Of a stretch of DNA of 64,000 bases, positions 3,057 through 31,001 are shown in pieces. Position numbers and translations under genes: made by a program. The notes beneath the pieces are model-generated. The model searched no databases. It was not told the origin of the DNA and was given only the letters and a program-made list of their open reading frames with translations. Within the stretch, counting starts at the first letter, position 1. Every line of letters starts with the position of its first letter. The stretch is from Candidatus Eiseniibacteriota bacterium (lineage in GTDB: Bacteria; Eisenbacteria; RBG-16-71-46): positions 64,001 through 128,000 of the forward strand of contig OY970342.1 of the NCBI GenBank assembly GCA_963717505.1, in the 5' to 3' direction.

Positions 3057-3058
3057 GC

Positions 3059-3087
3059 TTGCCGGGCGAGCACGGGAACACTAGCCT
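3059..3087 (+). promoter_or_regulatory. Putative sigma70 promoter TTGCCG-N17-TAGCCT
   Basis: 17-bp spacer; upstream of RBS AAGGAG and ATG 3156. Confidence 0.4.
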
Positions 3088-3155
3088 TGCGCGGTCGGCT
3101 CTCGGTTTGAAGACCCTGGGGCTCGGGATTCGGGCTCATCGATCAAGGAGACCTC

Positions 3156-3894: not shown

Positions 3895-4874
3895 CCGCAT
3901 CGGAGCACCACGTCGGAATCGCTTCGGGACCAGTCGCGCACGGGCCCCTGCGGTTCGCGTTCCGTGGTCACGGTGGCGAGTTCTTCGCGGACTGGATCCG
4001 CAACATGCTCCTCTGCGTGCTCACCCTCGGGCTCTACTACCCGTGGGCGCGTGCCCGTATTCTCGGCTACCTGATCGGAAACCTCGAAGCCGACGGCGAC
4101 CGCCTGAGCTATCACGGCAGCGGTTCCGAGTTGTTCGTCGGCTTGCTCAAGATCATCGCGGTCATGGTCGTCTCCTATGTCGTCCTGATCTTCCTGGCGC
4201 CGGTCCTGCCGGTGGCGCTCTTCCTGATCCTGGTCGTCGCGATCTACGTCGGGACGTTTCTCCTCTCGGGGCTGGCCCTGCTCGGCGCCTTCCGCTACCG
4301 GCTGACGCGAACCTCGTGGCGCGGAGTGCGATTCGCGGTGCGCCGTGAGACCGGCGCGTTCCTGCGCGAGTTCATGCTCTACGGCACCCTGGTGGTGGTG
4401 ACGCTCGGCCTCGCGCTGCCGTTCTTTCTCAACTGGCGTCGGCGAGCATTGACTCACCGCGCCGGGCTTGGCACCGGGCGATTCGGGTTCGACGGCGACG
4501 CGCGATCGCTCATCGGACCCTACCTGCTCGCGATGTTCCTGACCCTTCCGACGCTGGGTCTGGCGTGGGTCTGGTACGACCTGGTACAGAAGCGCCACAT
4601 GTGGAATCACACGACCTTCGAGCGGGCGCGTTTCCGGCTCTCGATCGAGACCTCGGCCTGGTTCTCCTTTGCGGTGCTCAACAGCCTGCTGGTGGTGCTG
4701 ACGTTGGGACTGGGTTGGCCGCTGGCGGCCACGCGCTACCTGTCGTTTCTCACCGACCACCTGACGCTCGAAGGCCCACTGGACCTGGCGGCGATTCGCT
4801 CGGCGCCGGCCGACGCCTCGGCCACCGGCGAGAGCCTGGCCGACGTGTTCGACATCGATGTCGAGCTCGGCTGA
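3891..4874 (+). CDS. YjgN/DUF898 family inner membrane protein
   Basis: F.F.G.GGE...N.LL..LTLGLYYPWA motif, repeated TLGL segments, TSWRGVRF. Confidence 0.85.
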   Translation: MTASEHHVGIASGPVAHGPLRFAFRGHGGEFFADWIRNMLLCVLTLGLYYPWARARILGYLIGNLEADGDRLSYHGSGSELFVGLLKIIAVMVVSYVVLIFLAPVLPVALFLILVVAIYVGTFLLSGLALLGAFRYRLTRTSWRGVRFAVRRETGAFLREFMLYGTLVVVTLGLALPFFLNWRRRALTHRAGLGTGRFGFDGDARSLIGPYLLAMFLTLPTLGLAWVWYDLVQKRHMWNHTTFERARFRLSIETSAWFSFAVLNSLLVVLTLGLGWPLAATRYLSFLTDHLTLEGPLDLAAIRSAPADASATGESLADVFDIDVELG

Positions 4875-6024
4875 CCTGTCGCACGGGTCCGCGTCGTTTC
4901 AGGGACGCTGGTTCGACGGACAGTCACCGGTCGGTCGCGACGCCCGCGTCGAGATCACGCCCTCGGGCTTGAGCATTCGCTCGGACGCCGCGGACACCCT
5001 GTGGCCTTGGATTGAAGTGAAGCAGACCCGCGGCGCGATCCGCGGAGAGCCGGTGCAGTTCGAGCGCCGTGGGGCGGCAGAGACCATCGTAGTGCAGGAT
5101 CCGGCGATCCTCGAAGCCGTGCGCGGGATCGTTCCCGAGATCTCGCGCCATTTTCGTCGACCCACACGGCACACTACGGCGTGGCGCATCGCACTCGGCG
5201 TGGTCGCGTTGGTCGCCTCCGCGTACGTCGTCTACGCCTGGATCATCCCGCAGGCAGCGGAGCAGCTCGCGCAGTCTGTTCCGGTCAAGTGGGAGGAGCA
5301 GTTTGGCGCTGCCGTGATGGAGTCGGCCCTGCTCGGCAAGCGGGCGGTCGACGAGGACGCGATCGTCGCCCCGCTGGATCTGTTGATGCAGCGCCTCGAG
5401 CGCGCGAATCCCGACAGCCGCTATACCTATCACCTCACCGTGACCGACGAATCCGAGGTCAACGCGTTCGCCGGCCCGGGCGGCTATCTGGTCTTCAATC
5501 GGGGGATGCTCGAGTTCACGAACTCCCCGGACGAGCTGGCGGCGGTGCTCGCCCACGAGATGCAGCACGTCGAGCGCCGCCATGTGACCCGCGGGCATCT
5601 TCAGAGCGCCTGGCGCTCTCCGCGGTGTTGGCGGTGGCGCTCGGCGGCGCCGACTCGTTCGCCGGGCAGGCGGCGCGAACCCTGGGGGAACTGTCCTACA
5701 GCCGCAACGACGAGACCGAGGCGGATCGCGAAGGGCTGCGCATGCTGGAGGTCGCGGGTGGCGACGGCCGGGCGATGGCCGCACTGCTCGAGCGGATGGA
5801 CGCGTCCGGGCGCACCGATCCCGTTGGCGTCGTTCCTGTCGACGCACCCGGGTGGCGCACGACGCGCGCAGGCGATTCGTGCGGCGGCGACCGGACCGAA
5901 GGCGGGCGCCGAGCCCCTGCTGACTCCGGCAGAATGGAGCACGATGAAGGCTGCCGTCAGTGCGCGGTCTTCCGCTTCTCCCGCCCGCGACGAAACGCCA
6001 CAAACGCCATCCACGCCGCCGTAA
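4858..6024 (+). CDS. M48 family zinc metallopeptidase with compensating frameshifts between about 5595 and 5815
   Basis: VNAFAGPGG, LAHEMQH; YSRNDETEAD lies in an alternative frame; FLSTHP is back in the first frame. DUF898 + M48 is a known pairing. Confidence 0.85.
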   Translation: MSSSADLSHGSASFQGRWFDGQSPVGRDARVEITPSGLSIRSDAADTLWPWIEVKQTRGAIRGEPVQFERRGAAETIVVQDPAILEAVRGIVPEISRHFRRPTRHTTAWRIALGVVALVASAYVVYAWIIPQAAEQLAQSVPVKWEEQFGAAVMESALLGKRAVDEDAIVAPLDLLMQRLERANPDSRYTYHLTVTDESEVNAFAGPGGYLVFNRGMLEFTNSPDELAAVLAHEMQHVERRHVTRGHLQSAWRSPRCWRWRSAAPTRSPGRRREPWGNCPTAATTRPRRIAKGCACWRSRVATAGRWPHCSSGWTRPGAPIPLASFLSTHPGGARRAQAIRAAATGPKAGAEPLLTPAEWSTMKAAVSARSSASPARDETPQTPSTPP

Positions 6025-6331
6025 GGAAGAGCCCGAGCGTCTCGCGCGATTCTTCGATCTGCGGCGATTCGGCCTTCATCGACTCGGCCAGCTGCGACCA
6101 GGCGATTCCGCCCTGGATGTGCGTCAACACCCACACACCCCAAACGCCCGCGATCACCGCGATCAAGGAGGGGGCGATGCGTCCGGCGCTGGCGCGCGCC
6201 GCGCTCATGCCGCTGACCACCGCGGCGCCGGCATAGATCAGCGCCCAGGGCCACGGGTCGGGATCGTTGTACTGGAGCAACGCGCTGATCGCGAATACGA
6301 TCGCCATCAGAATGTCGAGTGCTCGAATCAT
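5957..6331 (-). CDS. Transmembrane 220 (TMEM220) family protein
   Basis: QYNDPD..W..IY motif, EESRETLGL, GGAGG RBS. Confidence 0.8.
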   Translation of the reverse strand: MIRALDILMAIVFAISALLQYNDPDPWPWALIYAGAAVVSGMSAARASAGRIAPSLIAVIAGVWGVWVLTHIQGGIAWSQLAESMKAESPQIEESRETLGLFLTAAWMAFVAFRRGREKRKTAH

Positions 6332-6432
6332 GGGACCTCCGTGACGCAACTATTCCCGACTGCTACCCGGGGACATACGCATGATCATCGGCTGAAGTCG
6401 ATCCCGTCGTGAGCGGCCGAAGATCAGGCGCC

Positions 6433-7161
6433 CTAACGCTTCTGTTGTGCCTGAACGCCACGGATTTCGGCGAGCATGCCAGTTGGCGCACCACCGGCAC
6501 TTCCGGGATTGTTGATTGCCTGCACGGTCGTCTCGACATATGGCCCGCTCTCGATGACTGTCCTGAGGCGGTTGGCGATGATCAGGCAGTCCCTCGCGTG
6601 TTTCCCCCTTCGTTTCGTCACTTCACCAACGATCATACGTAGCCGGGCGCGCGCGTGACGGTTAGGGTCCGACAACCGCGCTAGAGCGATGCCGGTGATC
6701 GGCACACGCTGGGTCCTACCTTCCACGAACGTCACGGTGAGCAAGCTCTCACGGAGCGCGAACGCCTGAGTCGTATCGATGAGATCGCTCGGCGCCTCCC
6801 GTCGAACCTCATCGAGCGACTTGCCGGCGTGAATCTTCGACACGATCTGGGAGAATGTTTGGCCCCAGGGGTCTTCGTGGCTCCGGTACGTCGTCGACCC
6901 GGGGCCGCAGACGATCATGTATCCGACGAACCGATCCATGGTGTCGGCTGCTGCCAGCCACGGACCCTTGCCGTTGAGATACAAGGTGTCGTTCGCGATC
7001 GTGGCCTTGACCTTCCCGGTCAGGCGATGCCCGCACCAGTAGAGGTGCACGCCCTTGGGGACCTTGAACGTCTGGATCGTCTCAGCGGACGCGCCGATGC
7101 CCCCGAGTACAGGCACCAGAACGATCACAATCAAGACGCGCCGTCCGAGCTGCATGAACAT
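6433..7161 (-). CDS. Hypothetical secreted protein
   Basis: Signal peptide (LGRRVLIVIVLVPVLGGIGASA); no family recognised. Confidence 0.55.
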   Translation of the reverse strand: MFMQLGRRVLIVIVLVPVLGGIGASAETIQTFKVPKGVHLYWCGHRLTGKVKATIANDTLYLNGKGPWLAAADTMDRFVGYMIVCGPGSTTYRSHEDPWGQTFSQIVSKIHAGKSLDEVRREAPSDLIDTTQAFALRESLLTVTFVEGRTQRVPITGIALARLSDPNRHARARLRMIVGEVTKRRGKHARDCLIIANRLRTVIESGPYVETTVQAINNPGSAGGAPTGMLAEIRGVQAQQKR

Positions 7162-7171
7162 CAGGATACGC

Positions 7172-8389
<1,218 letters not shown>

Positions 8390-8433
8390 GGCGGATCCGC
8401 GCCCGCGAGTTCCGTTCGACTCCGGACGGCGGC

Positions 8434-9852
8434 TCATCGCCGGCCGCCCCGACCGCCACCACCACCCTGGCCGCCGCGACCTCCCATACCGGGCGGCGGT
8501 TGCAGGTTCTGGTTGGCGGTCGCATTCGAAGCCATGTCGACGCCCACGATCACTTCGGTGCCCGGCGCCAGTCCCTCGCCGACGATCTCGGTGTTGGAGC
8601 CGTTCGAGAGTCCGGCCATCACCGGCATGCGTTCGGGCTTTCCGGCGTTGAGCACGTAGACGGCCCCGGGCTTGAGTCTGGGGGTGTCGCCCTCGCCGGT
8701 GTCCTGTGAATCGCCACGGGGCCCGCGGCGCGCTCCGCCATTCTGACCCACGCGCGCCATCCCGCGTTCAGCGCCGGACCTCATTCCCGGTGCGCCGGAG
8801 CGTGCGCCACCCGATCCCGCGCCTCCGCCACCCGATCCCATGCGCGCGTCGCCTTCGCCCGCGGGCCGTCGAGCGCCCGTGTCGGCCGCCGCGGCATCGC
8901 CCGAGCCCGGTTGGGGCGCGGCGTTGCGCGCCTGATTTCCACCGCCCGCGGGTGCTGCCGGCTTGAAGCGCAGGGCCGCCGCCGGAGCCATGAGCACGTC
9001 CTCGCGGCGATCCACCAGGATCGAAACATTGGCGGTCATTCCCGGGCGCAGTTTGAGGTGGGGATTCGACGTGTGGATCACGGTGGTGTAGGTGACCACG
9101 CCCTGCTCGGCAATCGGTTCGAGCCGAACTTCGGCGACCTTGCCGGTGAATTGATCGTCGGGGAACGCGTCGACCGTGAAGCGCGCTTCGAGGCCGGCGC
9201 GAATTTGTCCGATGTCCGCTTCGTCGATTCGGGTCTCGACCTGCATGTCGGCGAGGTCATTGGCGATCAGGAAGAGCTGAGGCGCCTGGAGGCTCGCGGC
9301 CACGGTCTGCCCGAGATCGACCGAACGCGCGATCACCACGCCGTCGATCGGCGAGCGAATGATCGTGTTGCCGAGATCGACGCGCGCGGCCTGGAGCTGG
9401 GCTTGCGCCTGCATGAGGTCAGCGCGGCTCTGCTCGACCGCTACTTCCTTGGCCTCGAGCTCGGTTTGGGGAATGTAGCCCTCACCCACCAGCTCGCGCG
9501 CACGTGTGAGCTGGCGCTCGGCTTCTTTGAGCGACGCCTGCGCCTTGGCCACGGACGCCTCGCTCTGCACCGCGCGCGCGCGGAACGAGGACGGATCCAG
9601 CTCGAGCAGCACCTGGCCGCGCTTGACGCGGTCGTTGTAGTCCGCCTTGAGTGCCATGACGGTGCCGCTGACCTGGCTGCCGACGTTGACCTGGACCACC
9701 GGGCGCACGGTCCCGGTTGCCGAAACCAGCGACTCGATGTCGCCCTGTTCGAGCTTGGCCGTTCGGTACTTGGGCGCTTTGCCCGCGCCCGAGCAGCCGG
9801 CGAGGAACGAGACGGCAACGGCGAGGGCCAACAGGCGTGAGACGTGGGACAC
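8434..9852 (-). CDS. MacA/HlyD-type periplasmic adaptor subunit (lipoprotein)
   Basis: VGSQVSG, IRSPIDGVV, GQTVAASLQAP, LRPGMTA; lipobox LAGC; AAGGAG RBS before GTG 9852; Gly/Arg-rich insert and tail. Confidence 0.92.
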   Translation of the reverse strand: MSHVSRLLALAVAVSFLAGCSGAGKAPKYRTAKLEQGDIESLVSATGTVRPVVQVNVGSQVSGTVMALKADYNDRVKRGQVLLELDPSSFRARAVQSEASVAKAQASLKEAERQLTRARELVGEGYIPQTELEAKEVAVEQSRADLMQAQAQLQAARVDLGNTIIRSPIDGVVIARSVDLGQTVAASLQAPQLFLIANDLADMQVETRIDEADIGQIRAGLEARFTVDAFPDDQFTGKVAEVRLEPIAEQGVVTYTTVIHTSNPHLKLRPGMTANVSILVDRREDVLMAPAAALRFKPAAPAGGGNQARNAAPQPGSGDAAAADTGARRPAGEGDARMGSGGGGAGSGGARSGAPGMRSGAERGMARVGQNGGARRGPRGDSQDTGEGDTPRLKPGAVYVLNAGKPERMPVMAGLSNGSNTEIVGEGLAPGTEVIVGVDMASNATANQNLQPPPGMGGRGGQGGGGGRGGRR

Positions 9853-10066
9853 TCGGGCTCCTTGAATGCGGCGGGGACGAATCGGGCTCGGGTCGTTCAA
9901 GAATCCGCCATCTTCGCCCCGGCGCGCAAGATGTGGATTTCGAGTTCACAGGGACCGAACCGGTTCGATTACGCCCGGCCCAATGGCGACGAGGAATCAG
10001 GACGAGCGCCCGAACCCGAGACCCGAGCGCGGGACGGCCACTTGCTTCGGGTATGCTTCCGGACGC

Positions 10067-10996
10067 GTGCAAGCACTTTCCTCCACCGACGCACGGCGAG
10101 ACGCGATCGTTCGCGTACTCGTCGGCATCCTGATCGCCAACCTGGTGGTCGCCGCGGCCAAACTGTTCTATGGCTGGCGCTCGGGAGCGATCGCAATGGG
10201 TGCGGACGGCGTCCATTCGCTGCTCGACGCCGCCTCGAACGTGATCGGACTGGTCGGCGTGGCGGTCGCGCGCCGCCCGCCGGACGCCAATCACCCGTAC
10301 GGACATCGCAAGTACGAAACCTTTGCGGCACTCGCGATCGCCGGCATGATGCTGATCGGCTGCATGGAGATCGGGACGGCCGCGCTCGCGCGCCTCCGAA
10401 TGCCGTACGTGCCCGAGATCGATGCGCTCGGTTTCACGATCATCGGCGCAACGATCGCGATCAACGTGGCCGTGGTATGGCTCGAACGACGCGAAGCCCG
10501 CCGGCTCCAGAGCGAGCTACTGATGTCGGACGCAGCCCACACGGGCAGCGACGTGCTCGCCAGCATGCTGGTGCTCGTCAGCTTCGTCCTGGCACGGTTC
10601 GGAATGTGGTGGGCCGACATTGGGGCCGCGGTGGTGATCGTGGTGCTCATCCTGCGAGCCGGCCTCGAAATCCTGCGCAACACGTTGTCGACACTCTCGG
10701 ATGAGCGCCGCATTCCCCCCAAGTTGATCGAGGCGGAGGCTACCGGAGAGCCCGGCGTGATCGAGGCGCACAACGTCCGTTCGCGCGGGCCCGACGACGA
10801 CATCCACGTCGACCTGCACGTGCTGGTGGACCCCACGATCTCGGTCGCCGAGGCCCATCGCATCGGGCACCGGGTCGACGCGCGGTTGCGCGCGCGCTGG
10901 CCGAGCGTCACCGACATCGTGGTTCACGTCGAGCCTGCGCTCGAGAGCGAGAAGGGACGACCGGGCGTCGGTGGAGGGCTGGAAGCCGAGGGCTGA
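10067..10996 (+). CDS. Cation diffusion facilitator (FieF-like) metal efflux transporter
   Basis: ADGVHSLLD, HPYGHRKYE, DAAHTGSD, HVDLH...IVVHVEP. Start could be ATG 9983. Confidence 0.92.
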   Translation: MQALSSTDARRDAIVRVLVGILIANLVVAAAKLFYGWRSGAIAMGADGVHSLLDAASNVIGLVGVAVARRPPDANHPYGHRKYETFAALAIAGMMLIGCMEIGTAALARLRMPYVPEIDALGFTIIGATIAINVAVVWLERREARRLQSELLMSDAAHTGSDVLASMLVLVSFVLARFGMWWADIGAAVVIVVLILRAGLEILRNTLSTLSDERRIPPKLIEAEATGEPGVIEAHNVRSRGPDDDIHVDLHVLVDPTISVAEAHRIGHRVDARLRARWPSVTDIVVHVEPALESEKGRPGVGGGLEAEG

Positions 10997-20913: not shown

Positions 20914-23048
20914 CCCCCCGACCCCCGCTCCCGAACGGTCACCGTCTCGCCGTCGCTCTCGCGTTCCTCGCGCTGGCGACTGCGGCTTCGGCCGCCCCAC
21001 TCCCCTACCCGACCACGGCGAAGCAGGTGGTTCGGGACACGCTGCACGGCATGGTGATCGAAGATCCATACCGGTGGCTCGAGGAACAGAAAGCGCCGGC
21101 GACCCGCGAATGGCTCGACCGCCAGATCGCGTTCACCGACTCGGTCCTGGGCACCGTGCCCGGGCGCGAGTCGATCGAGAAACGGATTGCCGAGCTGCTC
21201 AAGGTCGAGACGCGAACGGTTCCCGAGGTGCACGGCGGACGCCTGTTCTTCACCCGCCGTGCCGCAGATCAGGATCTGTCGGTCCTGTGCATGCGCGAAG
21301 GCCCCGACGGCAAGGACGAGGTCCTGGCCGATCCCAACGGCATGAGCGCGGATCGCTCGGTCTCGGTGCTGTACTACGGCTACTCACCCGACGGCTCGCT
21401 GGTCGGGATCGCGACTCGCAGCGGCGGCGAAGACGAGATCCAGGTCGCGTTTCTCGACCTCAAGACCCGTCAGGAGCTGCCCGACCGGCTGCCCAAGGCG
21501 CGCTACTTCGGCGTCGCGATCCGGCCCGACCGCAAGGGAATCTACTATTCGCGCATGGGCCAGACTGGGCCACGCGTTCACTACCACGCGATGGGCGCCG
21601 ACACCGCAACCGACAAGGTGATCTTTGGCGACGGGTACGACCCGGGGAAGATCATCGGCGTCCAGATGTCCGAGAACGGCCGCTGGCTCCTGATCACGGC
21701 CCTCCACGGCTCGGCCGCGAAGAAGGTCGAGCTGTACGTGAAGGACGTGCTCGCTGACGGCCCGGTGATTCCGATCGTCAACGACGTCGACGCCTGGTTC
21801 ACCGCCCAGTTCGCGGACAACCACCTCTACTTGCGCACCAACTGGGAGGCGCCCAATCAGCGGGTGCTGCGCGTGGACCTGACCCAGCCGGCGCGCGACC
21901 AGTGGCAGGAAGTGATTCCCCAAGGCAAGTTCGCGATGGACGGGCTCGAGCTAGCCGGTGGCAAACTGGTCGCACGTTACATCGAGAACGTGATCACCAA
22001 GCTGCGGATCTTCGACCCGGCCGGAAAGCCGCTCGGCGCAGTCGAGTTCGAAACCCTGGGTGCGGCCGGCAATCTCAACGGGCGTTGGAGCGACCCCAGC
22101 CTGTACTTCGAGTTCGAGTCCTTCGCGGTGCCGACGACGATCTTCCGCTACGACGTCGCCAAGAGCGTGCGCACCGAGTGGTTCCGCGAACGCGTGCCAG
22201 TCAAGTCCGATGAGTTCGAGGTGAAGCAGCTCTGGTACACCTCGAAGGACGGAACCGACGTGCCGATGTTCGTGGCCCACAAGAAGGGGATCAAGCTCGA
22301 CGGCACGAATCCCACGTTTCTCTGGGGCTACGGCGGTTTCACGGTCAACGAGCTGCCCTCGTTCACCCACAACGCCGTGATCTGGATGGAGCGCGGCGGC
22401 GTGTTCGTACTCGCCAACCTGCGCGGCGGGTCGGAGTTCGGCGAACGCTGGCACCAGGACGGCATGCTCGCGAACAAGCAGAACACGTTCGACGACTTCA
22501 TCGGCGCGGCCGAGCATCTCGTGTCCGCCAAGTACACGAGCCCGTCGCGGCTCGCGGTCGGCGGCGGCAGCAACGGCGGCCTGCTGGTCGGCGCGTTCAT
22601 GACCCAGCGTCCGGACCTGTGCCGGGCCGTCTATTGCGGCGTGCCGCTGATCGACATGGTTCGCTATCACAAGTTCCTGGTCGCGCGCTTCTGGGTCCCC
22701 GAGTACGGTTCGGCCGACAACCCCGATCAGTTCAAGTTCATTCACGCCTACTCTCCCTACCACCACGTGAAGGCCGGCACCGAGTATCCGGCGGTGTTGT
22801 TCATGACCGGGGATGCCGACACGCGCGTCGATCCGCTCCATGCCCGCAAGATGACGGCGCTGATGCAGGCGTCGACGGGTTCGGACCGTCCGGTGTTGCT
22901 GCACTACGACCTGAAGCAGGGTCATTCGGGCGGCGGCAAGGCGACCTCGCTGAAGGTGCGCGACGACACGGACCGCAACCTGTTCCTCATGTGGCAGCTC
23001 GGCATGCTGGGCGGCGATGCCGCGGCCCAGGCCAAGGCGCCCAAGTAA
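20910..23048 (+). CDS. Prolyl oligopeptidase (S9A), exported
   Basis: Signal peptide; DPYRWLE, YGGF, GGSNGG, DTRV, GH. Confidence 0.97.
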   Translation: MTPRPPLPNGHRLAVALAFLALATAASAAPLPYPTTAKQVVRDTLHGMVIEDPYRWLEEQKAPATREWLDRQIAFTDSVLGTVPGRESIEKRIAELLKVETRTVPEVHGGRLFFTRRAADQDLSVLCMREGPDGKDEVLADPNGMSADRSVSVLYYGYSPDGSLVGIATRSGGEDEIQVAFLDLKTRQELPDRLPKARYFGVAIRPDRKGIYYSRMGQTGPRVHYHAMGADTATDKVIFGDGYDPGKIIGVQMSENGRWLLITALHGSAAKKVELYVKDVLADGPVIPIVNDVDAWFTAQFADNHLYLRTNWEAPNQRVLRVDLTQPARDQWQEVIPQGKFAMDGLELAGGKLVARYIENVITKLRIFDPAGKPLGAVEFETLGAAGNLNGRWSDPSLYFEFESFAVPTTIFRYDVAKSVRTEWFRERVPVKSDEFEVKQLWYTSKDGTDVPMFVAHKKGIKLDGTNPTFLWGYGGFTVNELPSFTHNAVIWMERGGVFVLANLRGGSEFGERWHQDGMLANKQNTFDDFIGAAEHLVSAKYTSPSRLAVGGGSNGGLLVGAFMTQRPDLCRAVYCGVPLIDMVRYHKFLVARFWVPEYGSADNPDQFKFIHAYSPYHHVKAGTEYPAVLFMTGDADTRVDPLHARKMTALMQASTGSDRPVLLHYDLKQGHSGGGKATSLKVRDDTDRNLFLMWQLGMLGGDAAAQAKAPK

Positions 23049-24196
23049 TGACGGCAGCCAAGCTCTCGGTGGGCGACGCCCAGGCCATGAAGGATCCGGC
23101 CACCGGCCTGCTCCAGATCCTGGCGCCCGATGGCTCGCTGGTCGGGGAGCCGCCGGCGATCCCGCGAGACGATCTGCGTCGCATGTACCGGCACATGCTG
23201 CGCATGCGGGTTACCGACCAGCGCATGCTGTCGCTCCAGCGCCAGGGACGGATCGGCTTCTACGGCACCGCCACCGGCCAGGAAGCGGCGGTGACCGGAT
23301 CGGCCTACGCGCTAGCCGACACCGACTGGATCTTCCCGGCGTTGCGCGAGATCGGAGCATCGACCTGGCGCGGCACTACGATGCAGGAGGTCATCTGCCA
23401 GCTGATCGGGAACAGCGGCGACGTCCTGATCGGCCGGCAGATGCCCTGCCACTTCAGCGACCGCAAGGTGCACAGCGTCGCCTGGTCTTCGGTGATCGGC
23501 ACACAGCTGGTTCACGCGATGGGCGCCGCGTGGGCGGCAAAGCTGCAGAAGACCCGCGACGTGATGATGGGCTACATGGGAGACGGCGCCTCTTCGTCGG
23601 CCGACTTCCATGCCGCCGCGAACTTCGCGGGCGTCTTCCGGCTTCCGGTCGTGTTCTTCTGCCAGAACAATCAGTGGGCGATTTCGGTGCCGCTCGCGTC
23701 CCAGACGGCCTCGCCCAGCATCGCGATCAAGGCGGTCGCCTACGGCTTTCCCGGGGTCCGCGTCGACGGCAACGATCTATTGGCGGTGGTCCAGGCGACG
23801 CGTGAGGCGGTGGATCGCGCCCGGCGTGGCGACGGCCCGACGCTGGTCGAGGCGGTGACGTTCCGCATGGGCGGACACTCGTCGAGCGACGATCCGACGC
23901 GCTATCGCGAGGCGTCCCTGGTCACGACCTGGGAGCAGCGGGATCCGCTCGCGCGTTTGAAGGTCTGGCTCGAGCGCGAGGCGATGCTGAAGCCCGAAGA
24001 GACCGACGCCTGGACGGCGGAGGCCAACGACGAAATCGGCGTCGCGATCCGCGAGGCCGAGGCCCATGGCCCGCCGCCACTCGAGACCCTGTTCTCGGAC
24101 GTCTATCGCGACATGCCACCGCACATCGCCGAGCAGAAGGAGTACGCAATCGCCATGGGCGAGGGCACCAAGTTCGAGGGACGATTCCCGCTGTAG
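23048..24196 (+). CDS. 2-oxoacid dehydrogenase E1 alpha subunit (branched-chain-like)
   Basis: LQRQGRIGFY, GRQMPCH, TPP motif GDGA...NN, HSSSDDP..YR; TAATG overlap with the peptidase stop. Confidence 0.97.
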   Translation: MTAAKLSVGDAQAMKDPATGLLQILAPDGSLVGEPPAIPRDDLRRMYRHMLRMRVTDQRMLSLQRQGRIGFYGTATGQEAAVTGSAYALADTDWIFPALREIGASTWRGTTMQEVICQLIGNSGDVLIGRQMPCHFSDRKVHSVAWSSVIGTQLVHAMGAAWAAKLQKTRDVMMGYMGDGASSSADFHAAANFAGVFRLPVVFFCQNNQWAISVPLASQTASPSIAIKAVAYGFPGVRVDGNDLLAVVQATREAVDRARRGDGPTLVEAVTFRMGGHSSSDDPTRYREASLVTTWEQRDPLARLKVWLEREAMLKPEETDAWTAEANDEIGVAIREAEAHGPPPLETLFSDVYRDMPPHIAEQKEYAIAMGEGTKFEGRFPL

Positions 24197-24221
24197 CACG
24201 CGGACACTCCGGAGGCCGAAC

Positions 24222-24560
24222 ATGAGAGGTCTGTTGCTCGTCCTGCTGATCGCGGCGGGCGGCTGCCGCGCCCAGGACTATCGCGCCGTCGAAGGCAAGC
24301 TCGACGCGCCCCTGCGGCAGAAACTCGAGGCCCTTCACCAGGAGGATCGCGTCGACACGCTCGCGGTCCTCGGCCGCTGCTCGGCGCCGGTCTCCGACGA
24401 GATGCGCGCGAAAATCGTGGCGGCCGGGGTCGAAGTGCAGTCGGTGACCGGCGACATCTTCGCGGCGCGCCTGGCGTCGGACCGCATCGTCCCGCTGGCG
24501 AAGCTCGACTTCGTCAAGATGCTCGAGTTGTCTCAGACCTCGCAGCCGCTCTCGCCCTAG
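24222..24560 (+). CDS. Small lipoprotein homologous to the prodomain of the adjacent S8 protease (putative inhibitor or chaperone)
   Basis: GGAGG RBS; lipobox AGGC; 17 of 39 residues identical, ungapped, to the neighbour's prodomain (manual alignment). Confidence 0.75.
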   Translation: MRGLLLVLLIAAGGCRAQDYRAVEGKLDAPLRQKLEALHQEDRVDTLAVLGRCSAPVSDEMRAKIVAAGVEVQSVTGDIFAARLASDRIVPLAKLDFVKMLELSQTSQPLSP

Positions 24561-24569
24561 GAGGCGCGC

Positions 24570-26933
24570 ATGACGTCCTTCCGTTCTCGATTCCGTGCCG
24601 CCAGCGCGATCGTGGTCGCGACCACTGCGGCCTGGCTCTCGATCGCGGGCGCCGAAACCGGGCGCGGCGCGGTGCCATTCTCGTTGAGGAACGCGGTCCG
24701 CGAAGCCACCCCGCTCGACGCCAAGCTCGACGCCACCCTGCGCTACGTGCTCGAACAAGCCGAGGCTGCGCAAACGGGAACTCTGGCCCGCGGGCGGGTG
24801 GATCCCCTCGCGGCCATCGTCGACCCACGTTCGCCGTTCGCGGTCTTGCGCGACCCGTGGCGCGCGGCACCGGAAGTGCTGGTCTTCATGCGGCTCGATC
24901 GGCCCGAGTCGGCGCGCCGGGTCGAGGCCGAGGGCGCCGAAGTCCTGGCGGTGGTCGAGGACATTGCCACCGCGCGTATTCCGGTATCGCGCGTGCGGGC
25001 GATCGCCGAGCTCGAACCCGTGCGCTACCTCGAGCTGTCCGGCCGTTCGTTCGCGCAGCTCGACTCCAGCCGCCGCCGCACCGGTGTGCGCACCGTGCAC
25101 CAGGGCGGCGGCGGATTGCCCCGCGCGTTCACCGGCGCCGGCGTCCTGGTCGGCGTGCTCGACGGCGGGCTCGACTACAAGCACGCGGACTTTCGCACGG
25201 CGGGCAACACCTCGCGCGTCCGTGCCTTGTACGACTACGGCACCGGAGCGAACGGCATCGAGTGCCGGCCCGGCCAGCTCGACTCGCTGACCTGCCCCGA
25301 GAAGGACGGCTCCGGAGGATTCAGCCACGGCACTCACGTCACCGGGACAGCGGCCGGCAACGGAAGGCGCAACGCGGCGTACATCGGCATGGCGCCCGAT
25401 GCCGGCATCATCTTCGTCAAAGGCATTCGTCATCCCGAGAGCACTGGCGGCTTCACCGATGCCGACGTGCTCGCCGGCTCGCAGTTCGTGTTCAACAAGG
25501 CGCGCCAGTTCGGTCAGCCGTGCGTCCTGAACTTGAGCCTGGGAAGCCAGTCCGGCCCCCACGACGGAACGACGCTCTATGAACAGGCGTTGGGTTCGCT
25601 CACCGGTCCCGGGCGCATCATCGTCGCGGCGGCGGGCAACAGCGGCGGACAGGAAATCCACGCCTCGTACGCCGCGCAAGGCAGCGACTATGCCTCGGCG
25701 CTCGAGACCCTATGGCAGATCGCCGGCGGCGCGACGGTGTCCGCCGTCGACCTCTGGTACCCCGGCGGCACCAGCATCTCCGTCGGAGTCGCCGCCTACA
25801 ACCCCGGCGACTACAACAATCCTGTGTTCGTCTCGAATCCGATCGCTCCCGGGCAATCGGTGACGGGAACCGCCACCTCCGGGGGCACCGATCTCGGCAT
25901 CGTCTCGATCGACGCCCGCACCACCGCGGATGCCAACAACGGGGCGCGTCGCGTGTTCATCGCCATCTCCGATGCCGGCGGACCGGTGAATCCCTCCGAC
26001 CTCTACTGGTCGGTCTACACCTTCGGCTCGGGGACGCTCGACATGTGGGTGGTGAACAGCGGCTTGTTTGCGCCCGCGTCGCTTCCCCTGCCCGTGTGGT
26101 TCCGGCCCGGCGACAATGCGAAGACCATCGGCTCGCCGGCCACCGGCCGAAAGCTGATCGCGGTCGGCTCGCACGTCACCAAGACCCAGTGGATCGACGT
26201 GAACGGCATCACGCGCTTTCAGCCGGGGGCCACGCTCGATGCCATCTCCGGATTCAGCAGCCGTGGGCCGTCGCGCGACAACCGCGTGCTGCCTCATCTC
26301 AGCGCACCCGGCGAGGCCATTCTGGCGGCGCTCTCGGCCGATTATCCGGCCGACCCGGCCACCGTTTTGCTTGGCGGCGGCTTGTTCCGGCAGCAGGGCA
26401 CCAGCATGGCGTCGCCGCATGTCACCGGCATCGTGGCACTCATGCTGGAGCGCGACCCCGCGCTGACGCCGGACAATGTCCGCGACCTGTTGCAGCAGAC
26501 CGCGACCCCGGCGGGCGGCGGAACTCCCAACAACATCTTCGGCGCCGGCAAGGTGAATGCGCTCGCGGCCCTGCTCGCGACCCCCGATGCTGTTCCCTGC
26601 GTGATCTCGAGCCCGCTCGCCAGCAGGCCCGTGGAGTGCGACGAGAACGCTCGGCCGCTGGGAGCCGCGCTCGAAGCCTGGCCGAATCCGGTGGCCGACC
26701 AGGTGACGCTGGCCTTCCGGCTCGACGCGACCGAGCACGTGCATCTCGCGATCTACGACCTGTTCGGCCGCCGCATCCGGACCTTGCGCGACGAGCCGAC
26801 CGCTGCGGGTCCGATCCTCGCGCGCTGGGACCGCCGAAGCGATCGCGGGGACCGCGTACCGGCGGGCGTCTACTTCGCCCGTGCCCTTACTCCGACCCAT
26901 TCCGCATTCCGGCGGATGGTGGTCGTCCACTGA
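24570..26933 (+). CDS. S8 subtilisin-like serine peptidase (CspA-like, with inserted domain) and C-terminal FlgD-Ig/T9SS-like domain
   Basis: Triad VLDGG / HGTHVTG / GTSMASPHV; AAAGN; C-terminal WPNP...IYDLFGRRIRTL...WD...GVYF. Confidence 0.95.
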   Translation: MTSFRSRFRAASAIVVATTAAWLSIAGAETGRGAVPFSLRNAVREATPLDAKLDATLRYVLEQAEAAQTGTLARGRVDPLAAIVDPRSPFAVLRDPWRAAPEVLVFMRLDRPESARRVEAEGAEVLAVVEDIATARIPVSRVRAIAELEPVRYLELSGRSFAQLDSSRRRTGVRTVHQGGGGLPRAFTGAGVLVGVLDGGLDYKHADFRTAGNTSRVRALYDYGTGANGIECRPGQLDSLTCPEKDGSGGFSHGTHVTGTAAGNGRRNAAYIGMAPDAGIIFVKGIRHPESTGGFTDADVLAGSQFVFNKARQFGQPCVLNLSLGSQSGPHDGTTLYEQALGSLTGPGRIIVAAAGNSGGQEIHASYAAQGSDYASALETLWQIAGGATVSAVDLWYPGGTSISVGVAAYNPGDYNNPVFVSNPIAPGQSVTGTATSGGTDLGIVSIDARTTADANNGARRVFIAISDAGGPVNPSDLYWSVYTFGSGTLDMWVVNSGLFAPASLPLPVWFRPGDNAKTIGSPATGRKLIAVGSHVTKTQWIDVNGITRFQPGATLDAISGFSSRGPSRDNRVLPHLSAPGEAILAALSADYPADPATVLLGGGLFRQQGTSMASPHVTGIVALMLERDPALTPDNVRDLLQQTATPAGGGTPNNIFGAGKVNALAALLATPDAVPCVISSPLASRPVECDENARPLGAALEAWPNPVADQVTLAFRLDATEHVHLAIYDLFGRRIRTLRDEPTAAGPILARWDRRSDRGDRVPAGVYFARALTPTHSAFRRMVVVH

Positions 26934-26956
26934 TGCTCGCCCACGGAGGAGAGGCC

Positions 26957-27400
26957 ATGCGCCTGACGATTCCCATCGCGCTGCTCGCGCTCGCGCTCGC
27001 GCTCTTCGGGTGCTCGAGCTCGGAGGACACGACCGCCCCACCCCCGGGAACGACCCACTCAGAAGCCGAGCCCAACGACTCGGCGCCGCAATCGCTCGGC
27101 ACGCTGGACTCCACCGACATCGTGGTCGGCGGCGCCTCGGCCAGCAATGCCGACATCGACCTCTATAGCGTGACCCTATCGGCGACCGCGTCCCTGTTCG
27201 TTCAGTTGTCGTGGTCGGGAGCCCAGGATCTCGGGGTCGCGGTGTCGAACACCGACGGCGTGTTCGTCACCAACGTCGACGGAACGTCCAACATCGAGGA
27301 ATGCACCGTGCTCAACCTGGATCCGGGAACCTATCGGGTTCGCGTCGGCTCGCAATCGACGAGTTCAGCGGACTACCTGCTGACGATCGGCATGCGCTAG
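26957..27400 (+). CDS. PPC (pre-peptidase C-terminal)-like domain lipoprotein
   Basis: Lipobox LFGC; EAEPND, D.DLY, PGTYRVRV...Y.L.I. Confidence 0.75.
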   Translation: MRLTIPIALLALALALFGCSSSEDTTAPPPGTTHSEAEPNDSAPQSLGTLDSTDIVVGGASASNADIDLYSVTLSATASLFVQLSWSGAQDLGVAVSNTDGVFVTNVDGTSNIEECTVLNLDPGTYRVRVGSQSTSSADYLLTIGMR

Positions 27401-27445
27401 GCAAAACAAGGGGCCCCCGCGGACGCGGAGGCCCTGTTGTTTGCC
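27400..27445. terminator. Bidirectional intrinsic terminator between convergent operons
   Basis: GGCAAAACAAGGGGCC...GGCCCTGTTGTTTGCC hairpin with A-rich and T-rich flanks. Confidence 0.7.
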
Positions 27446-27488
27446 AGGTCCGATGTCGGTTCGGACCGCAGCTCCCCAGCGCGGGGAT

Positions 27489-28814
27489 CTAGTTCCGGGC
27501 GGGCGGCAGCTTGAGCACCTGTCCGGCTTTGACGTCGGGCGACACCAGATCGTTGTGCATCATGAGCGTCTCCGGGCTGACTCCCCAGCGCTTGGCGATG
27601 CTGGTGATCGTCTCCCCGGCGCGAACCGTGATCCGGTTCGGACGCACCGTGGTCGGCGCCGGCGACGTCACTTCGGGCGCTGCGGGCGCGGCACTCACTT
27701 CCTCGACCACCTTCGGGACCGGCGGCACCGGGTTCGCGGCCTGCGGTGTGGCACGCGGGGCCTCGTCGACCGCCTTGGGCTTCGCCGGCGTCTTGGCGGG
27801 CGCCGAGGTCGTGGCCGGCGCGCGCGGCGGATCGTAACCGGGATCCGACGTGCCGAACGGTCCCTGATTCATGTTCATCTTGCCTGGGCGAAGCGAAATG
27901 CCGATCCGGTGCTGCGCGTCGGCATCGCCGGGAATCAGGTACGCGTAGTCGAGCCACATGCCGTAGAAGCCGGTGCCCAGGCCGAACGTCGGACCGGTCA
28001 GCGTCTCGCCTTCCGGCGCGCCCATCTCGGAACGGTAGCCGACGCGCAGCGCCGCCATGTCGCGCCAGCGATACTCGACGCCGGTGCGCACGTCGGTGTA
28101 GTACGCGTTCGGGAAGTTCACGTCGAGCGCGAAGCGCAGTCCGGACTGCGCGTGCTCGTAGCTGACGCCGGCGCCGTAGTTGGTCGGGAAGCTATAGACC
28201 TGATCTTCGTACTTCATCTGACCGAATGCGTTCTGGGCGGCGAATCCGAATCCGAAAGCCCCGGCGCGGCCCTGGAGGCCGAAGTCGAAGGTCATTCCCG
28301 AACCACGGATGTCGCCAAGGCTCTCGTTGACCCACTTACCGCCCACACCCAGCGAGAGCATTTCGTTGATCGGCCAAGCCACGGTGGCCCCCGCGGCGAC
28401 CCGCGAAACGTCGAAGCTGCCGGTCGGGTTGTTGAACGCGTCGCGGCCCTCGAACGAACCCTCGCTCGCGTAGATCCCGGTCAACGCCCAACGGAGAGGT
28501 TGGTTTCCCAGCCGGCCGCCGGCGACGAGGTAGTCCTGGGTGTGATCCTCGAGGATTGTCGCGTGCGACAGCGAGAACTCGGTTTCGTTGAGCCATCCGA
28601 GCGAGGCGGCGTTCCAGCCGACGCTACTCAGATCGCCCATCAGGCCCAAGGTGGCGCCGGCGCGACCGAGGGCGGCCGCACCGCTTCCAATCGTAAGGAA
28701 ATTCGCCGCGGTGGTTCCCGCCGCGTCGGAGCTGGCACGCGCCTCGCGCACCGTCCCGGCGAACACCGTCCCCAGCGCGAGGACGGCGACCGCCATTTGC
28801 TGAATTCGCTTCAT
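27489..28814 (-). CDS. PorV/PorQ-family outer-membrane beta-barrel fused to a C-terminal LysM domain
   Basis: GTTAANFLTIGSGA.ALG..GA...WNAASL N-terminus, G.EY...ALRVGY, DYAY; Pro/Ala linker; LysM ITVRAGETITSIAKRWGVS...N.L...GQVLKLP. Confidence 0.8.
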   Translation of the reverse strand: MKRIQQMAVAVLALGTVFAGTVREARASSDAAGTTAANFLTIGSGAAALGRAGATLGLMGDLSSVGWNAASLGWLNETEFSLSHATILEDHTQDYLVAGGRLGNQPLRWALTGIYASEGSFEGRDAFNNPTGSFDVSRVAAGATVAWPINEMLSLGVGGKWVNESLGDIRGSGMTFDFGLQGRAGAFGFGFAAQNAFGQMKYEDQVYSFPTNYGAGVSYEHAQSGLRFALDVNFPNAYYTDVRTGVEYRWRDMAALRVGYRSEMGAPEGETLTGPTFGLGTGFYGMWLDYAYLIPGDADAQHRIGISLRPGKMNMNQGPFGTSDPGYDPPRAPATTSAPAKTPAKPKAVDEAPRATPQAANPVPPVPKVVEEVSAAPAAPEVTSPAPTTVRPNRITVRAGETITSIAKRWGVSPETLMMHNDLVSPDVKAGQVLKLPPARN

Positions 28815-28828
28815 GGTCCTGTCCTCCC

Positions 28829-29797
28829 TCACGGCACACGGACCAGGCGAATGCTCTGCCGTTCCGAGCCCGAGATCACCCAACCGCGATAGACACCCGG
28901 CGCACACATGCGCCCGGCGTCGTTCTTTCCGTCCCACGGGATGTCCCGATTGCCGGCGGGCAGCGCGCCCACGTCCAGACGGCGCACGCGGCGATTGCCG
29001 GAGTCGATGATCTCGACCGCGACGTCCGAAACCCCGCCGGGCGGCACGGTGACCGGGAGATTCACCGAGGCGAAGACGCTGCTGGGATTCGGATAGGCCT
29101 CGTCGACCTCGAGTCCCGCCGTCGTCCCCGTGGTTTCGTTCAAGTTGACCGAGGTGAAGGTGCGCGCGCTCTCGTTGCCCGAAATGTCCTGGGCCGAGAT
29201 CTGGTACCAAACCGTGGTGATCCCCGCCGGGACGCCGGTATCGAGGAACTCGGTGGACGTCACGAGTCCGCCCGAGGCCAGGATGTAGGGACCGGATTGC
29301 GAGGTCGCGCGGTAGACGCGATACCCGAGCAGATCCGGCTCCGGACTCGGATTCCAGCGGATGCGCACGTCCTCGCCCTCGCGAGTGGCGTGAACACCGT
29401 TCGGAGCGCCGGGCGGGGCCGTGTCGAGCTGCCACTCCCAGCGCACGATGTTCGAGATCGGCGACAGATTGCCGTCGTCGTCTCGAGTCTTGAGCGCGAA
29501 CCAGTAGGTCGTCCCGCGCACCAGGCCACGAACGGTGACCTGCTCGCGCGAGCCGGCGACCCGCGGAATCGGAAGGCCGTTGACCTGGGTCGCGGAATTG
29601 AAGTTGGAGTCGTTGATCTGCGACAGCGAGTAGCGCAGGTCGTAGTCGGTCGCGGTCCCGAGGGAGCCGTCGTCACCGGGTGCCGTCCAGCGGACGACGA
29701 CCGTGTCGACCCCCTGACCGTAAGCGAGGGCCGGTGCGAACACCGGCAGCCCGAGCACGGCGGCAAGCGGGAACCACGTGAGAAGCGCGGAGCGCAT
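28829..29797 (-). CDS. Secreted fibronectin type III protein with FlgD-Ig/T9SS-like C-terminal domain
   Basis: WTAPGDDG...YDLRYS FN3; second FN3 (W...EPDL.GYRVYR); AYPNP...WDGKND.G....GVY. Confidence 0.8.
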   Translation of the reverse strand: MRSALLTWFPLAAVLGLPVFAPALAYGQGVDTVVVRWTAPGDDGSLGTATDYDLRYSLSQINDSNFNSATQVNGLPIPRVAGSREQVTVRGLVRGTTYWFALKTRDDDGNLSPISNIVRWEWQLDTAPPGAPNGVHATREGEDVRIRWNPSPEPDLLGYRVYRATSQSGPYILASGGLVTSTEFLDTGVPAGITTVWYQISAQDISGNESARTFTSVNLNETTGTTAGLEVDEAYPNPSSVFASVNLPVTVPPGGVSDVAVEIIDSGNRRVRRLDVGALPAGNRDIPWDGKNDAGRMCAPGVYRGWVISGSERQSIRLVRVP

Positions 29798-29825
29798 CGG
29801 GGCACGCGAGCGAGAGGCCGTCATC

Positions 29826-30647
29826 CTACCGGGCCTCCGTGCCACGGGGCCGCAACGCGTGCGACGTGCGCCAGCTGACGTGCACCCAGCCGACCGACAG
29901 GTCGCGCACCATGTCGGGCGCCATCGTGTCGGGCGTGATCGCATTGGGAACGTTGGACAACGCGGACACGTTGCCGGCGTCGTCGCCGACTCGCGCCGCG
30001 AAGTAGTAGCGAACCTGGCGGCTGAGCCCGGTCACGGTGTGGTTTTGCTGCGAACCCGGGCTGGCGGGCGAGGGTTCGCCACTGACCTGGTTCGCGCTAT
30101 TCCAGTTCGAAGTCGTGATGTTCGACGTCGAGTAGCGGAGGTCGTAGGTCGACGCGGTCCCGGTCAGGCTGTCGTCTCCGACCGCGGTCCACGACAGCAG
30201 CGCCGTCGTGTCGGTCACCGAGCCGATGGCGAGCACCAGCGGCGCCGGCCGTGCAGCATCCGGAGCGGCGAGCGTCGTCGCGTCGATCACGTTCGAGATC
30301 GGCGCCCAGTTCGGCACGTCGTCTGCGGTCTTGATTGCGATCCAGTACCGGGTGTTCGGCTGGAGCCCGGTGATGGTCGCGTTCTGTAGCGTGCCCGGGC
30401 CGCTCGGATTCGGCGTTCCGGTCCAGCGGGTGGCCGAACCGAAGTTGGAAGCGTTGATCTGCGAAGTCGAGTAGCGAAGGTCGAACTGATTAGCGGTTCC
30501 GACCATGCCGTCGTCTCCAGGTGTCGTCCACTCGATGCGGATACTCTGATCCGTCACTTGCGCCTGTGACGGGGCGGCCGGGAGGTTCAGCACGGCTGCG
30601 AGTAGCGCGGCCGCACCCCAGGATGCGTTTGCTCGGCGAAGTCTCAT
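29826..30647 (-). CDS. Secreted protein with two fibronectin type III domains
   Basis: GGAGG RBS; signal peptide; WTTPGDDG...FDLRYS and WTAVGDD...YDLRYS repeats. Confidence 0.8.
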   Translation of the reverse strand: MRLRRANASWGAAALLAAVLNLPAAPSQAQVTDQSIRIEWTTPGDDGMVGTANQFDLRYSTSQINASNFGSATRWTGTPNPSGPGTLQNATITGLQPNTRYWIAIKTADDVPNWAPISNVIDATTLAAPDAARPAPLVLAIGSVTDTTALLSWTAVGDDSLTGTASTYDLRYSTSNITTSNWNSANQVSGEPSPASPGSQQNHTVTGLSRQVRYYFAARVGDDAGNVSALSNVPNAITPDTMAPDMVRDLSVGWVHVSWRTSHALRPRGTEAR

Positions 30648-31001
30648 GTCCCCTCCAGGGTCGCCGGCCCGAACGGACCGGCAGAGGCGCGACCAACAAG
30701 GCGAGGTGCAGATGCGCAGACTGCGAGGGGAAGCCCCCAGGGATGCAGTGCAACGATGTCTGAACCTCGAGGGAGGCAAGGCTGCGGCCCGGTCAGCATG
30801 AACTGTGCCCGGTGTGTCATCGCGAAATGCAGCGCGTGAGAGGGCCGTGGCTGCGTGGGTTTGGCCCCTTCACCCCGCGGGTATCGGTTGCCTCGCGGGC
30901 GAACTGCACGAAATTCTCCGGTGCTCCCGAGGTCTACTGACGCCGGTGGTCGCGTGCGGCGTGCAACGGCGGGTCGTGGACGATGCAACGGGGTTGCCGC
31001 G

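Follow-up and report, generated by a model that had tools for sequence, protein, structure and literature searches.

Stand-alone proteins resembling the propeptides of subtilases have been described in eukaryotes, and those named in PMC6993865 are Plasmodium SUB1-ProM, the yeast proteinase B inhibitor, Pleurotus proteinase A inhibitor 1, Arabidopsis SPI-1, and Toxoplasma MIC5. According to the same source, SUB1-ProM inhibits potently and selectively, has its gene beside subtilase genes, and most closely resembles its target's propeptide (PMC6993865). A different group of small inhibitors, the potempins PotA-E, is described in PMC9890683 from Tannerella forsythia. These are lipoproteins encoded 0-5 bases upstream of the type IX KLIKK peptidases, which they inhibit 1:1 with an inhibition constant (Ki) of 2-10 nM, and one of them, PotC, inhibits the S8 enzyme mirolase (PMC9890683).

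The locus described here lies in a stretch of 64,000 nucleotides from a Candidatus Eiseniibacteriota bacterium (assembly GCA_963717505.1, contig OY970342.1, positions 64,001 to 128,000), and this whole stretch is called the window below. It contains a gene for a 112-residue lipoprotein, P0001, directly upstream of a gene for an S8 subtilase, P0002. By its fold and by its homology to the propeptide of the neighbouring enzyme, P0001 is a subtilase propeptide, in the structural sense of MEROPS family I9. It is proposed, and we hold it to be fairly probable, that P0001 is a lipid-anchored inhibitor of a type IX cargo protease that mimics the propeptide and keeps the enzyme inactive and tethered. 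The computed evidence consists of the homology, the fold, the conservation of the lipobox, the structure of the operon, the linkage of the genes in several phyla, and an interface predicted with confidence. An earlier note on this DNA had singled out the range 24222-25070, that is, the small gene together with residues 1-167 of the S8 protein, as a free copy of the prodomain beside its protease.

Homology and fold of the small lipoprotein

The features of the two genes and of a third gene that follows them are given below.

24211..24215, + strand: GGAGG ribosome-binding site of the P0001 gene, 6 nucleotides 5' of the ATG, from the sequence
24222..24560, + strand, stop included: small gene P0001, propeptide-like lipoprotein of 112 residues, from the open reading frame (ORF) and the family search
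24222..24266, + strand: signal peptide and lipobox of P0001, residues 1-15, IAAGGC, from the Cys column of the family
24297..24341, + strand: K-L-D-A-P-L-R motif and N-terminal helix of P0001, residues 26-40, from conservation and the model
24531..24557, + strand: C-terminal tail SQTSQPLSP of P0001, residues 104-112, from the comparison of tails in 16 gene pairs and the predicted interface
24570..26933, + strand, stop included: S8 subtilase gene P0002, 787 residues, Peptidase_S8 match at E-value 2e-42 over residues 189-660
24570..25064, + strand: propeptide region of P0002, from the AlphaFold2 model of the whole protein and hhalign, with a putative end
25065..26669, + strand: S8 catalytic domain, about residues 166-700, from motif positions, invariant columns of 120 homologues, and secondary structure
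26670..26930, + strand: C-terminal FlgD_ig / Por_Secre_tail-like domain of P0002, residues ~701-787, below the cut-offs here and above them in orthologues
26957..27400, + strand: third gene, lipoprotein of 147 residues with an LFGC lipobox and a pre-peptidase C-terminal (PPC) domain, PF04151 at E-value 4.5e-7, 31.1 bits against a cut-off of 25.9

The coding part of the P0001 gene (24222-24557, 112 codons) is closed by a TAG at 24558-24560. The start of P0002 at 24570 lies 9 nucleotides past this stop, and the GGAGG of P0002 overlaps the TAG. The N-terminus of P0001 reads MRGLLLVLLIAAGGC, in which Cys15 occupies the lipobox position and would, after processing, be the lipidated residue at the N-terminus. 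The catalytic residues of P0002 are D198, H253, N357, and S612. Its catalytic domain carries a beta-rich insert of ~130 residues (about 363-500, window ~25656-26069), in which D448, A449, and N457 are invariant among the 120 homologues.

The similarity of P0001 to the propeptide of the neighbouring S8 protein, on which the earlier note was built, is real. A single BLASTP comparison of P0001 residues 23-107 with P0002 residues 49-160 finds identity in 35 of 112 columns (31%) with 27 gap positions, at an E-value of 1e-6. When 134 members of the small family are aligned by hhalign with 13 partner subtilases, the probability is 97.9% and the E-value 3.9e-13 over 84 columns, and residues 24-110 of the small protein are paired with S8 residues 50-163. 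Two of the matches that had been read by eye, KLDAPLRQKLE (P0001 26-36) with KLDATLRYVLE (P0002 52-62) and a gap-free block of 39 residues with 17 identities (P0001 69-107 and P0002 122-160), are present as claimed. The K-L-D-A-P-L-R motif also opens the S8 propeptide, where K52 and R58 are invariant. The third match, RVDTLA (43-48) with RVDPLA (76-81), exists in the sequences and is paired by BLASTP, but the two segments are not equivalent in the profile alignment and the two models. Because strand 46-53 of P0001 is paired there with S8 strand 102-109, and the RVD match falls at an insertion of ~30 residues that the S8 propeptide has after its first helix relative to the small protein (seen by hhalign and in the models), this match may be structurally non-equivalent.

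The statement that P0001 stops about where the prodomain would end also holds. Its end lies opposite L164/D165 of the S8 protein, 33-34 residues before D198. The mature N-terminus of subtilisin BPN' stands 32 residues before Asp32, and by this measure the end of P0001 corresponds to the point at which the propeptide would be cut off. By this analogy the mature S8 enzyme would begin near L164/D165. The tail of P0001 aligns with the S8 propeptide segment running up to the expected cleavage site. In the 16 gene pairs compared, the small protein terminates 6-8 residues past the last strand (L-x-L-S), and the S8 propeptides run on past this strand as G-x-S-x-P/A-L/Q-L-D/N-x-S-R. In several of these pairs, the tail of the small protein and that of the propeptide of its own S8 partner share S-x-P-L.

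An AlphaFold model of P0001 from the family alignment has a predicted local distance difference test score (pLDDT) of 90.9. After the signal helix, it consists of a helix (29-40), a strand (46-53), a helix (59-67), two strands (71-76 and 79-85), a helix (86-93), and a final strand (98-103). The same order of elements is seen at the N-terminus of the S8 protein, with a helix at 55-69 and a core at 102-156. In the AlphaFold2 model of the whole S8 protein, the pLDDT is 87-91 over residues 100-156 and below 50 at 534-613, with an overall value of 64.1. A Foldseek comparison of the P0001 model with the PDB gives subtilase propeptides or pro-enzymes as its top four matches (4i0w_A, 3whi_B, 2z58_B, and 3cnq_P), at weak E-values of 0.01-0.03. 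As a lead only, a language-model search for look-alikes placed a CspB_prodomain cluster first (0.93) and gave 0.90 to a cluster bearing Inhibitor_I9. At the level of these models, P0001 has the alpha/beta fold of subtilase propeptides, which is the outcome the earlier note had looked for from structure prediction. The only sequence-level tie of P0001, found by hhalign, is to the propeptides of its S8 clade.

P0001 has no Pfam or NCBIfam match at E<=1. A word-indexed search for homologues returned four relatives of P0001 and five of the S8 propeptide region, and the family becomes visible only by profile search. When 1.84 billion cluster representatives (clusters at 50% identity) were searched exhaustively with a profile, 357 clusters were found at E<=1e-3, of which 109 reach E<=1e-10. 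Among the 150 family matches listed, nearly all have 76-200 residues, and almost every member is a lipoprotein of ~110 residues. The family alignment, A2, holds 134 of 155 small-family proteins after repeat proteins and lengths below 80 or above 136 residues were dropped. Two high-scoring proteins, P0062 (449 residues, 7 stretches) and P0141 (3447 residues, 14 stretches), were rejected as repeat-protein artefacts that score through summed weak matches. In A2, a Cys stands in the lipobox column of 108 of the 110 members that have at least 8 preceding residues, and K26 (127/134), L31 (131/134), and G69 are near-invariant.

Comparison of scores indicates the age of the family. P0001 shares 35-42% identity with small proteins of other phyla, against 31% with gaps for the propeptide of its own neighbour. 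On the family profile, small proteins of other phyla score at E-values of 1e-14 to 1e-40, and partner propeptides at 1e-5 to 1e-8. A recent duplication of the neighbour's propeptide is ruled out as the origin of P0001 by the far better scores of these other-phylum proteins. Judged from sequence comparison, P0001 belongs to an old, separate family that is a paralogue of the S8 propeptide.

Several further observations concern the family. A second Cys of P0001, residue 53 (24378-24380), belongs to a G-K-C motif that ends the first strand and is found in 95 of the 134 aligned members; it does not occur in S8 propeptides, and mature P0001 has no partner cysteine for it. Lipoproteins of ~190-230 residues with two tandem propeptide-like domains also exist (P0020, P0031, P0056, P0069, P0126, and P0134). 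In a metagenomic protein of 155 residues, P0097, the first ~86 residues resemble the small lipoprotein and the C-terminus is PPC-like, and it looks as if the intervening S8 gene had been deleted between two lipoprotein genes.

Predicted complex with the subtilase

The complex was modelled from S8 residues 165-700, with the alignment of 120 homologues, and the mature lipoprotein, residues 16-112, with alignment A2. The interface score ipSAE was 0.93 in all three runs and 0.00 for the best of three controls. The partner has a pLDDT of 92, the interface 142-145 contacts, and contact agreement among the runs was at least 97%. Of 157 solved complexes, 116 reach the mark used for ipSAE, as do 2 of 215 mismatched pairs, rates that are a rough guide here owing to the use of our own alignments.

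The predicted interface has three parts. In the first, the sheet of the small protein (48-52, 71-83, and 99-102) lies on S8 helices 293-303 and 335-344. In the second, the K-L-D-x-P-L-R helix (24-40) contacts S8 residues 430-465, within the clade-specific beta-rich insert. In the third, the whole tail 104-112 contacts D198, H253, N357, 323-329, and 608-613 of the enzyme. This is, in the model, the geometry of a cleaved propeptide. The earlier note had asked whether the C-terminus would enter the active site in an AlphaFold-multimer model, and the predicted complex does set SQTSQPLSP on the catalytic residues. As a modelling result, the complex supports the statement that P0001 looks and docks like a propeptide, and not that this particular copy binds.

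From these features, we infer lipidation, inhibition, the cell compartment, and an order of events. Both proteins would pass the inner membrane by Sec, the enzyme with an ordinary signal peptide and P0001 with a lipoprotein signal. The enzyme would fold on its covalent propeptide, cleave it, and eventually lose it. The lipoprotein would then fill the vacated site, with its four-stranded sheet on S8 helices 293-303 and 335-344, its K-L-D-x-P-L-R helix docked on the clade-specific insert at 430-465, and its C-terminal tail lying over the S4-S1 pockets and the catalytic triad in the manner of a product or a substrate. The outcome would be an inactive 1:1 complex tethered to the membrane, which may shield the envelope during type IX exit or form a latent pool at the cell.

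The same fold and the same predicted docking surface would also suit a trans-acting foldase, a membrane-bound chaperone for the folding or refolding of the S8 enzyme, for example after translocation, with inhibition as a by-product. Covalent subtilisin propeptides and lipase-specific foldases provide the models for such a role. The fold of P0001 is that of propeptides acting as intramolecular chaperones, the coupling of the two genes is tight, with 9 nucleotides between them, and the low-confidence insertion of ~30 residues in the propeptides of partnered S8 proteins could mean a weakened chaperone. Against this, all 13 of the aligned partner enzymes retain their own propeptide, with a complete core modelled at high confidence (pLDDT 87-91), and therefore the free copy is not needed to supply the fold. 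In the general view, type IX cargo folds while still in the periplasm and is exported afterwards, and if so, no second folding step is needed. In addition, all of the characterised stand-alone propeptide mimics named in PMC6993865 are inhibitors. A foldase is thus considered unlikely.

Linkage, secretion context, and competing explanations

Co-occurrence across genomes, which the earlier note had proposed to survey, was examined in three surveys, and homologues of the small protein were found to be tightly linked to S8 genes across phyla. The first survey used back-translated motifs and one genome per species, and its 7 loci lie in metagenome-assembled genomes (MAGs) with the labels Eisenbacteria, Bacteroidota, KSB1, Chitinophagales, and Calditrichota. 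An S8 gene is directly downstream in 6 of these 7 loci, which represent four phyla (Eisenbacteria, Bacteroidota, KSB1, and Calditrichota), and a second pair is present in locus L003. The second survey covered the phylum of the window, taken to be Eisenbacteria because L001 has the same sequence as L011/L076, from a genome of the same family. In its 206 genomes, the same holds for 9 of 11 free-standing copies outside the window, the other matches being propeptides within large S8 frames. The third survey, of KSB1, found an S8 gene directly downstream in 25 of 26 assessable loci; 30 loci had been examined, but in 3 the sequence stops less than ~250 bases from the gene, too close for a judgement, and 1 was set aside as belonging to an unpublished genome. 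Of 167 KSB1 genomes, 53 have a free copy at E<=1e-9, or 51 of 165 without two flagged unpublished ones. The genome of the window has a single free copy of the small protein besides the S8 enzyme's own propeptide. An unrelated fold, absence of S8 linkage, or absence of binding had been named in the earlier note as outcomes that would speak against a dedicated pair. At the level that can be computed, the fold is related and the genes are linked, and binding is predicted only.

The arrangement of the loci varies in some details. Tandem pairs of a small gene and an S8 gene occur in L003, which has two (4968-7715 and 7749-10307) in a genome with five free copies. In KSB1 loci L040, L042, L043, L045, and L047, the 3' end of another S8 gene is located just 5' of the small gene. 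The partner S8 of the Calditrichota locus L006 is divided into two ORFs (2293-4095 and 4114-4626, 600 and 170 residues), and a frameshift, a stop codon, or faulty assembly could account for the split. The PPC lipoprotein gene comes right after the S8 gene in the window, L001/L076, L002, L069, L070, L071, and L072, that is, in all 7 of the closest loci; it does not follow the S8 gene in L003, L006, L007, L074, and L075. The two-domain gene of L036 is followed by a protein with a PPC-like motif.

In the window, the third gene starts 23 bases past P0002. The gene 5' of P0001 ends at 24196 and encodes a homologue of pyruvate dehydrogenase E1-alpha (NCBIfam TIGR03181, E-value 3.6e-117, 391.1 bits, below the cut-off of 411.35). 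A scan of 22500-27800 for promoters and terminators is uninformative: no site resembles a promoter, and the 3 that resemble terminators compare with an expectation of 2.1. A contig from an RNA library (metatranscriptome) is identical over 271 bases, 24479-24749, and crosses the junction of P0001 and P0002. It is a weak hint of co-transcription, as such libraries can contain DNA; the library leaves most of the operon uncovered, a gap that says nothing about expression. When sequencing runs were compared with the stretch, none covered half of it, and in the best DNA runs the shared fraction of words was 0.24.

The type IX assignment of P0002 rests on its orthologues and its genome. The orthologue in L007 exceeds the cut-offs for the sorting domain (FlgD_ig 43.7 and Por_Secre_tail 35.9 bits). 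The genome of the window has a SprA_N match above the cut-off (82.3 bits) and a PorU-like gene below it (355.9 bits against 420). Around 45 further ORFs match just the sorting-domain end of the PorU model, and therefore a large set of type IX cargo is indicated. Because orthologues pass the sorting-domain cut-offs and type IX parts are present in the genome, P0002 is probably type IX secretion cargo. The PorU-like gene (C1:2957688-2961162) is represented by three matching pieces, with frames of 872 and 732 residues, and may contain a frameshift or be two genes. One further type IX feature adjoins the operon:

27489..29435, - strand: PorV/PorQ-family outer-membrane protein with a C-terminal LysM domain, NF033709 at 122.2 bits against a cut-off of 90, LysM at 44.1 bits

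This gene is convergent to the operon and not part of it. The match covers residues 229-648 of a longer ORF, whose true start is probably near residue 229. Two more secreted proteins, both containing fibronectin type III repeats, are encoded at 28829-29944 (- strand) and 29826-30779 (- strand). Since a FlgD_ig-type domain (41 bits) closes the former, this is a cluster of several probable type IX cargo genes.

A number of points weigh against P0001 as an inhibitor of a type IX protease. Neither P0001 nor the S8 propeptide matches Pfam PF05922 Inhibitor_I9 at E<=1, and a profile search of PDB sequences found no relevant chain, only signal-peptide and repeat noise with a best E-value of 0.013. 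The high score of the complex may come from its likeness to the many solved complexes of subtilisin with its propeptide, and the model of the whole S8 protein, with its mediocre overall pLDDT, is too poor for docking of the enzyme's own propeptide to be read from it. The order of events is a guess, because this covalent propeptide would be a competitor for the surface on which P0001 is predicted to dock. Conservation within the family is lowest in the tail, with positions 111-112 gapped in 52 and 63 of the 134 aligned members, and because its end is so variable the exact fit to the active site is not family-wide. The sorting domain of the S8 protein in the window itself is below the curated cut-offs (FlgD_ig 19.7 bits against 27; TIGR04183 19.7 against 23; PF18962 19.3 against 27). 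The linkage also has exceptions. In L005 (4977-5306, genome G209), the small gene is followed by an AMP-binding enzyme and has no adjacent S8 gene, and no orthologous S8 protein was found in G209 at E<=1e-30, a MAG that may be incomplete. The small gene of L005 has a shortened tail and, by comparison with L002, where the AMP-binding enzyme comes after the S8 and PPC genes, L005 looks like an orphan left by deletion. L063, in KSB1, has no S8 gene within 1.4 kb downstream. The two exceptions of the second survey, L019 (1390-2079, - strand) and L036 (1489-2097, - strand), are two-domain variants of 229 and 202 residues, respectively, which no S8 gene follows.

The secretion context also bears on another explanation, in which the lipoprotein is a tether or sorting adaptor that holds the enzyme or its zymogen at the membrane or at the secretion machinery, and in which blocking of the active site is secondary or absent. 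The Cys of the putative lipid anchor is kept by 108 of 110 members, the K-L-D-x-P-L-R helix is predicted to contact the clade-specific insert away from the active site, the PPC-domain lipoprotein gene follows the S8 gene in all 7 closest loci, and a PorV/PorQ-family gene adjoins the operon. Nevertheless, the predicted interface spans the whole tail and the catalytic triad, such that a bound enzyme would be blocked anyway, and targeting is already given by the C-terminal sorting domain of the enzyme. We regard a pure tether or adaptor as improbable. That P0001 is a relic of duplication without a present interaction, or an unrelated small ORF that is not a gene, is very hard to credit: the orphan copies L005 and L063 and the two-domain variants away from S8 genes would fit it, but the protein is conserved in at least four phyla with K26, L31, and G69 invariant or near-invariant, it has its own ribosome-binding site, an S8 neighbour is retained in the great majority of loci, and the RNA-library contig over 24479-24749 gives a weak hint in the same direction.

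The inhibitor reading can be extended to a wider hypothesis, which is put forward with considerable reserve. One clade of type IX subtilases in several FCB phyla might be regulated by two homologous propeptides that succeed one another. The covalent one would fold the enzyme and then be discarded, and its lipid-anchored paralogue, made in equal amount from one operon with the enzyme, would take exactly the vacated two-site surface and hold the mature enzyme in a latent, tethered state up to its release. For the clade of the window, the PPC lipoprotein might be a third component.

Comparison with known systems

Literature searches for a bacterial lipoprotein acting as a stand-alone propeptide, and for proteases of Eisenbacteria, returned nothing relevant, with subscription journals mostly uncovered. 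The suggestion in the earlier note that the arrangement is undescribed stands to this extent; its parent ideas are known, from SUB1-ProM (PMC6993865) and from the potempins (PMC9890683), in what those sources report. If the proposal is true, P0001 would be the first bacterial membrane-bound stand-alone propeptide inhibitor, and the potempin strategy would have been reinvented from the enzyme's own parts. Bacteria, like eukaryotes, would then have derived a stand-alone regulator from the propeptide of subtilases, in this case one bound to a membrane, and self-protection from type IX proteases would be suggested as a general need in these phyla. The proposal also gives a first functional lead for an unnamed family of small lipoproteins with 357 clusters. 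Possible uses include a specific inhibitor or expression partner for an environmental subtilase clade, and a system for the study of competition between free and covalent propeptides. The significance of the claim is limited in that it rests on prediction and that both parent ideas existed already.

The MEROPS I9 propeptides, such as those of Thermococcus kodakarensis Tk-SP (PDB 3afg), Tk-subtilisin, subtilisin BPN'/E, and CspB, are like P0001 in the docking of a sheet on two helices with the tail in the active site, which for P0001 is predicted. In contrast to them, P0001 is a separate gene product with a lipoprotein signal, the adjoining enzyme keeps its own propeptide, and P0001 has no sequence match to Pfam Inhibitor_I9 or to a solved chain. 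The eukaryotic stand-alone inhibitors are alike in being small independent proteins of propeptide fold, and a gene position beside subtilase genes is reported for SUB1-ProM (PMC6993865). They are soluble and in that source possibly convergent, and their inhibition has been measured (PMC6993865), whereas the P0001 family is bacterial, operonic, demonstrably homologous to the neighbour's propeptide, and putatively lipid-anchored and inhibitory.

The potempins share with P0001 the form of a lipoprotein of ~100-130 residues encoded in the same orientation and immediately upstream of a peptidase with a sorting domain (PMC9890683). They act at the outer membrane, each as a specific 1:1 inhibitor of the peptidase it is linked to (PMC9890683), and this is the role proposed here for P0001. 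In structure they are OB-folds or eight-stranded up-and-down beta-barrels, unrelated to propeptides, whose loops enter the cleft (PMC9890683), whereas P0001 has the modelled alpha/beta propeptide fold. P0001 is therefore ruled out as a potempin homologue on fold and is an analogue only. The potempins are reported in PMC9890683 from one species, and the P0001 family spans several phyla of the FCB group. The arrangement of P0001 thus combines two known ideas, that of the eukaryotic stand-alone I9 inhibitors and that of the potempin lipoproteins.

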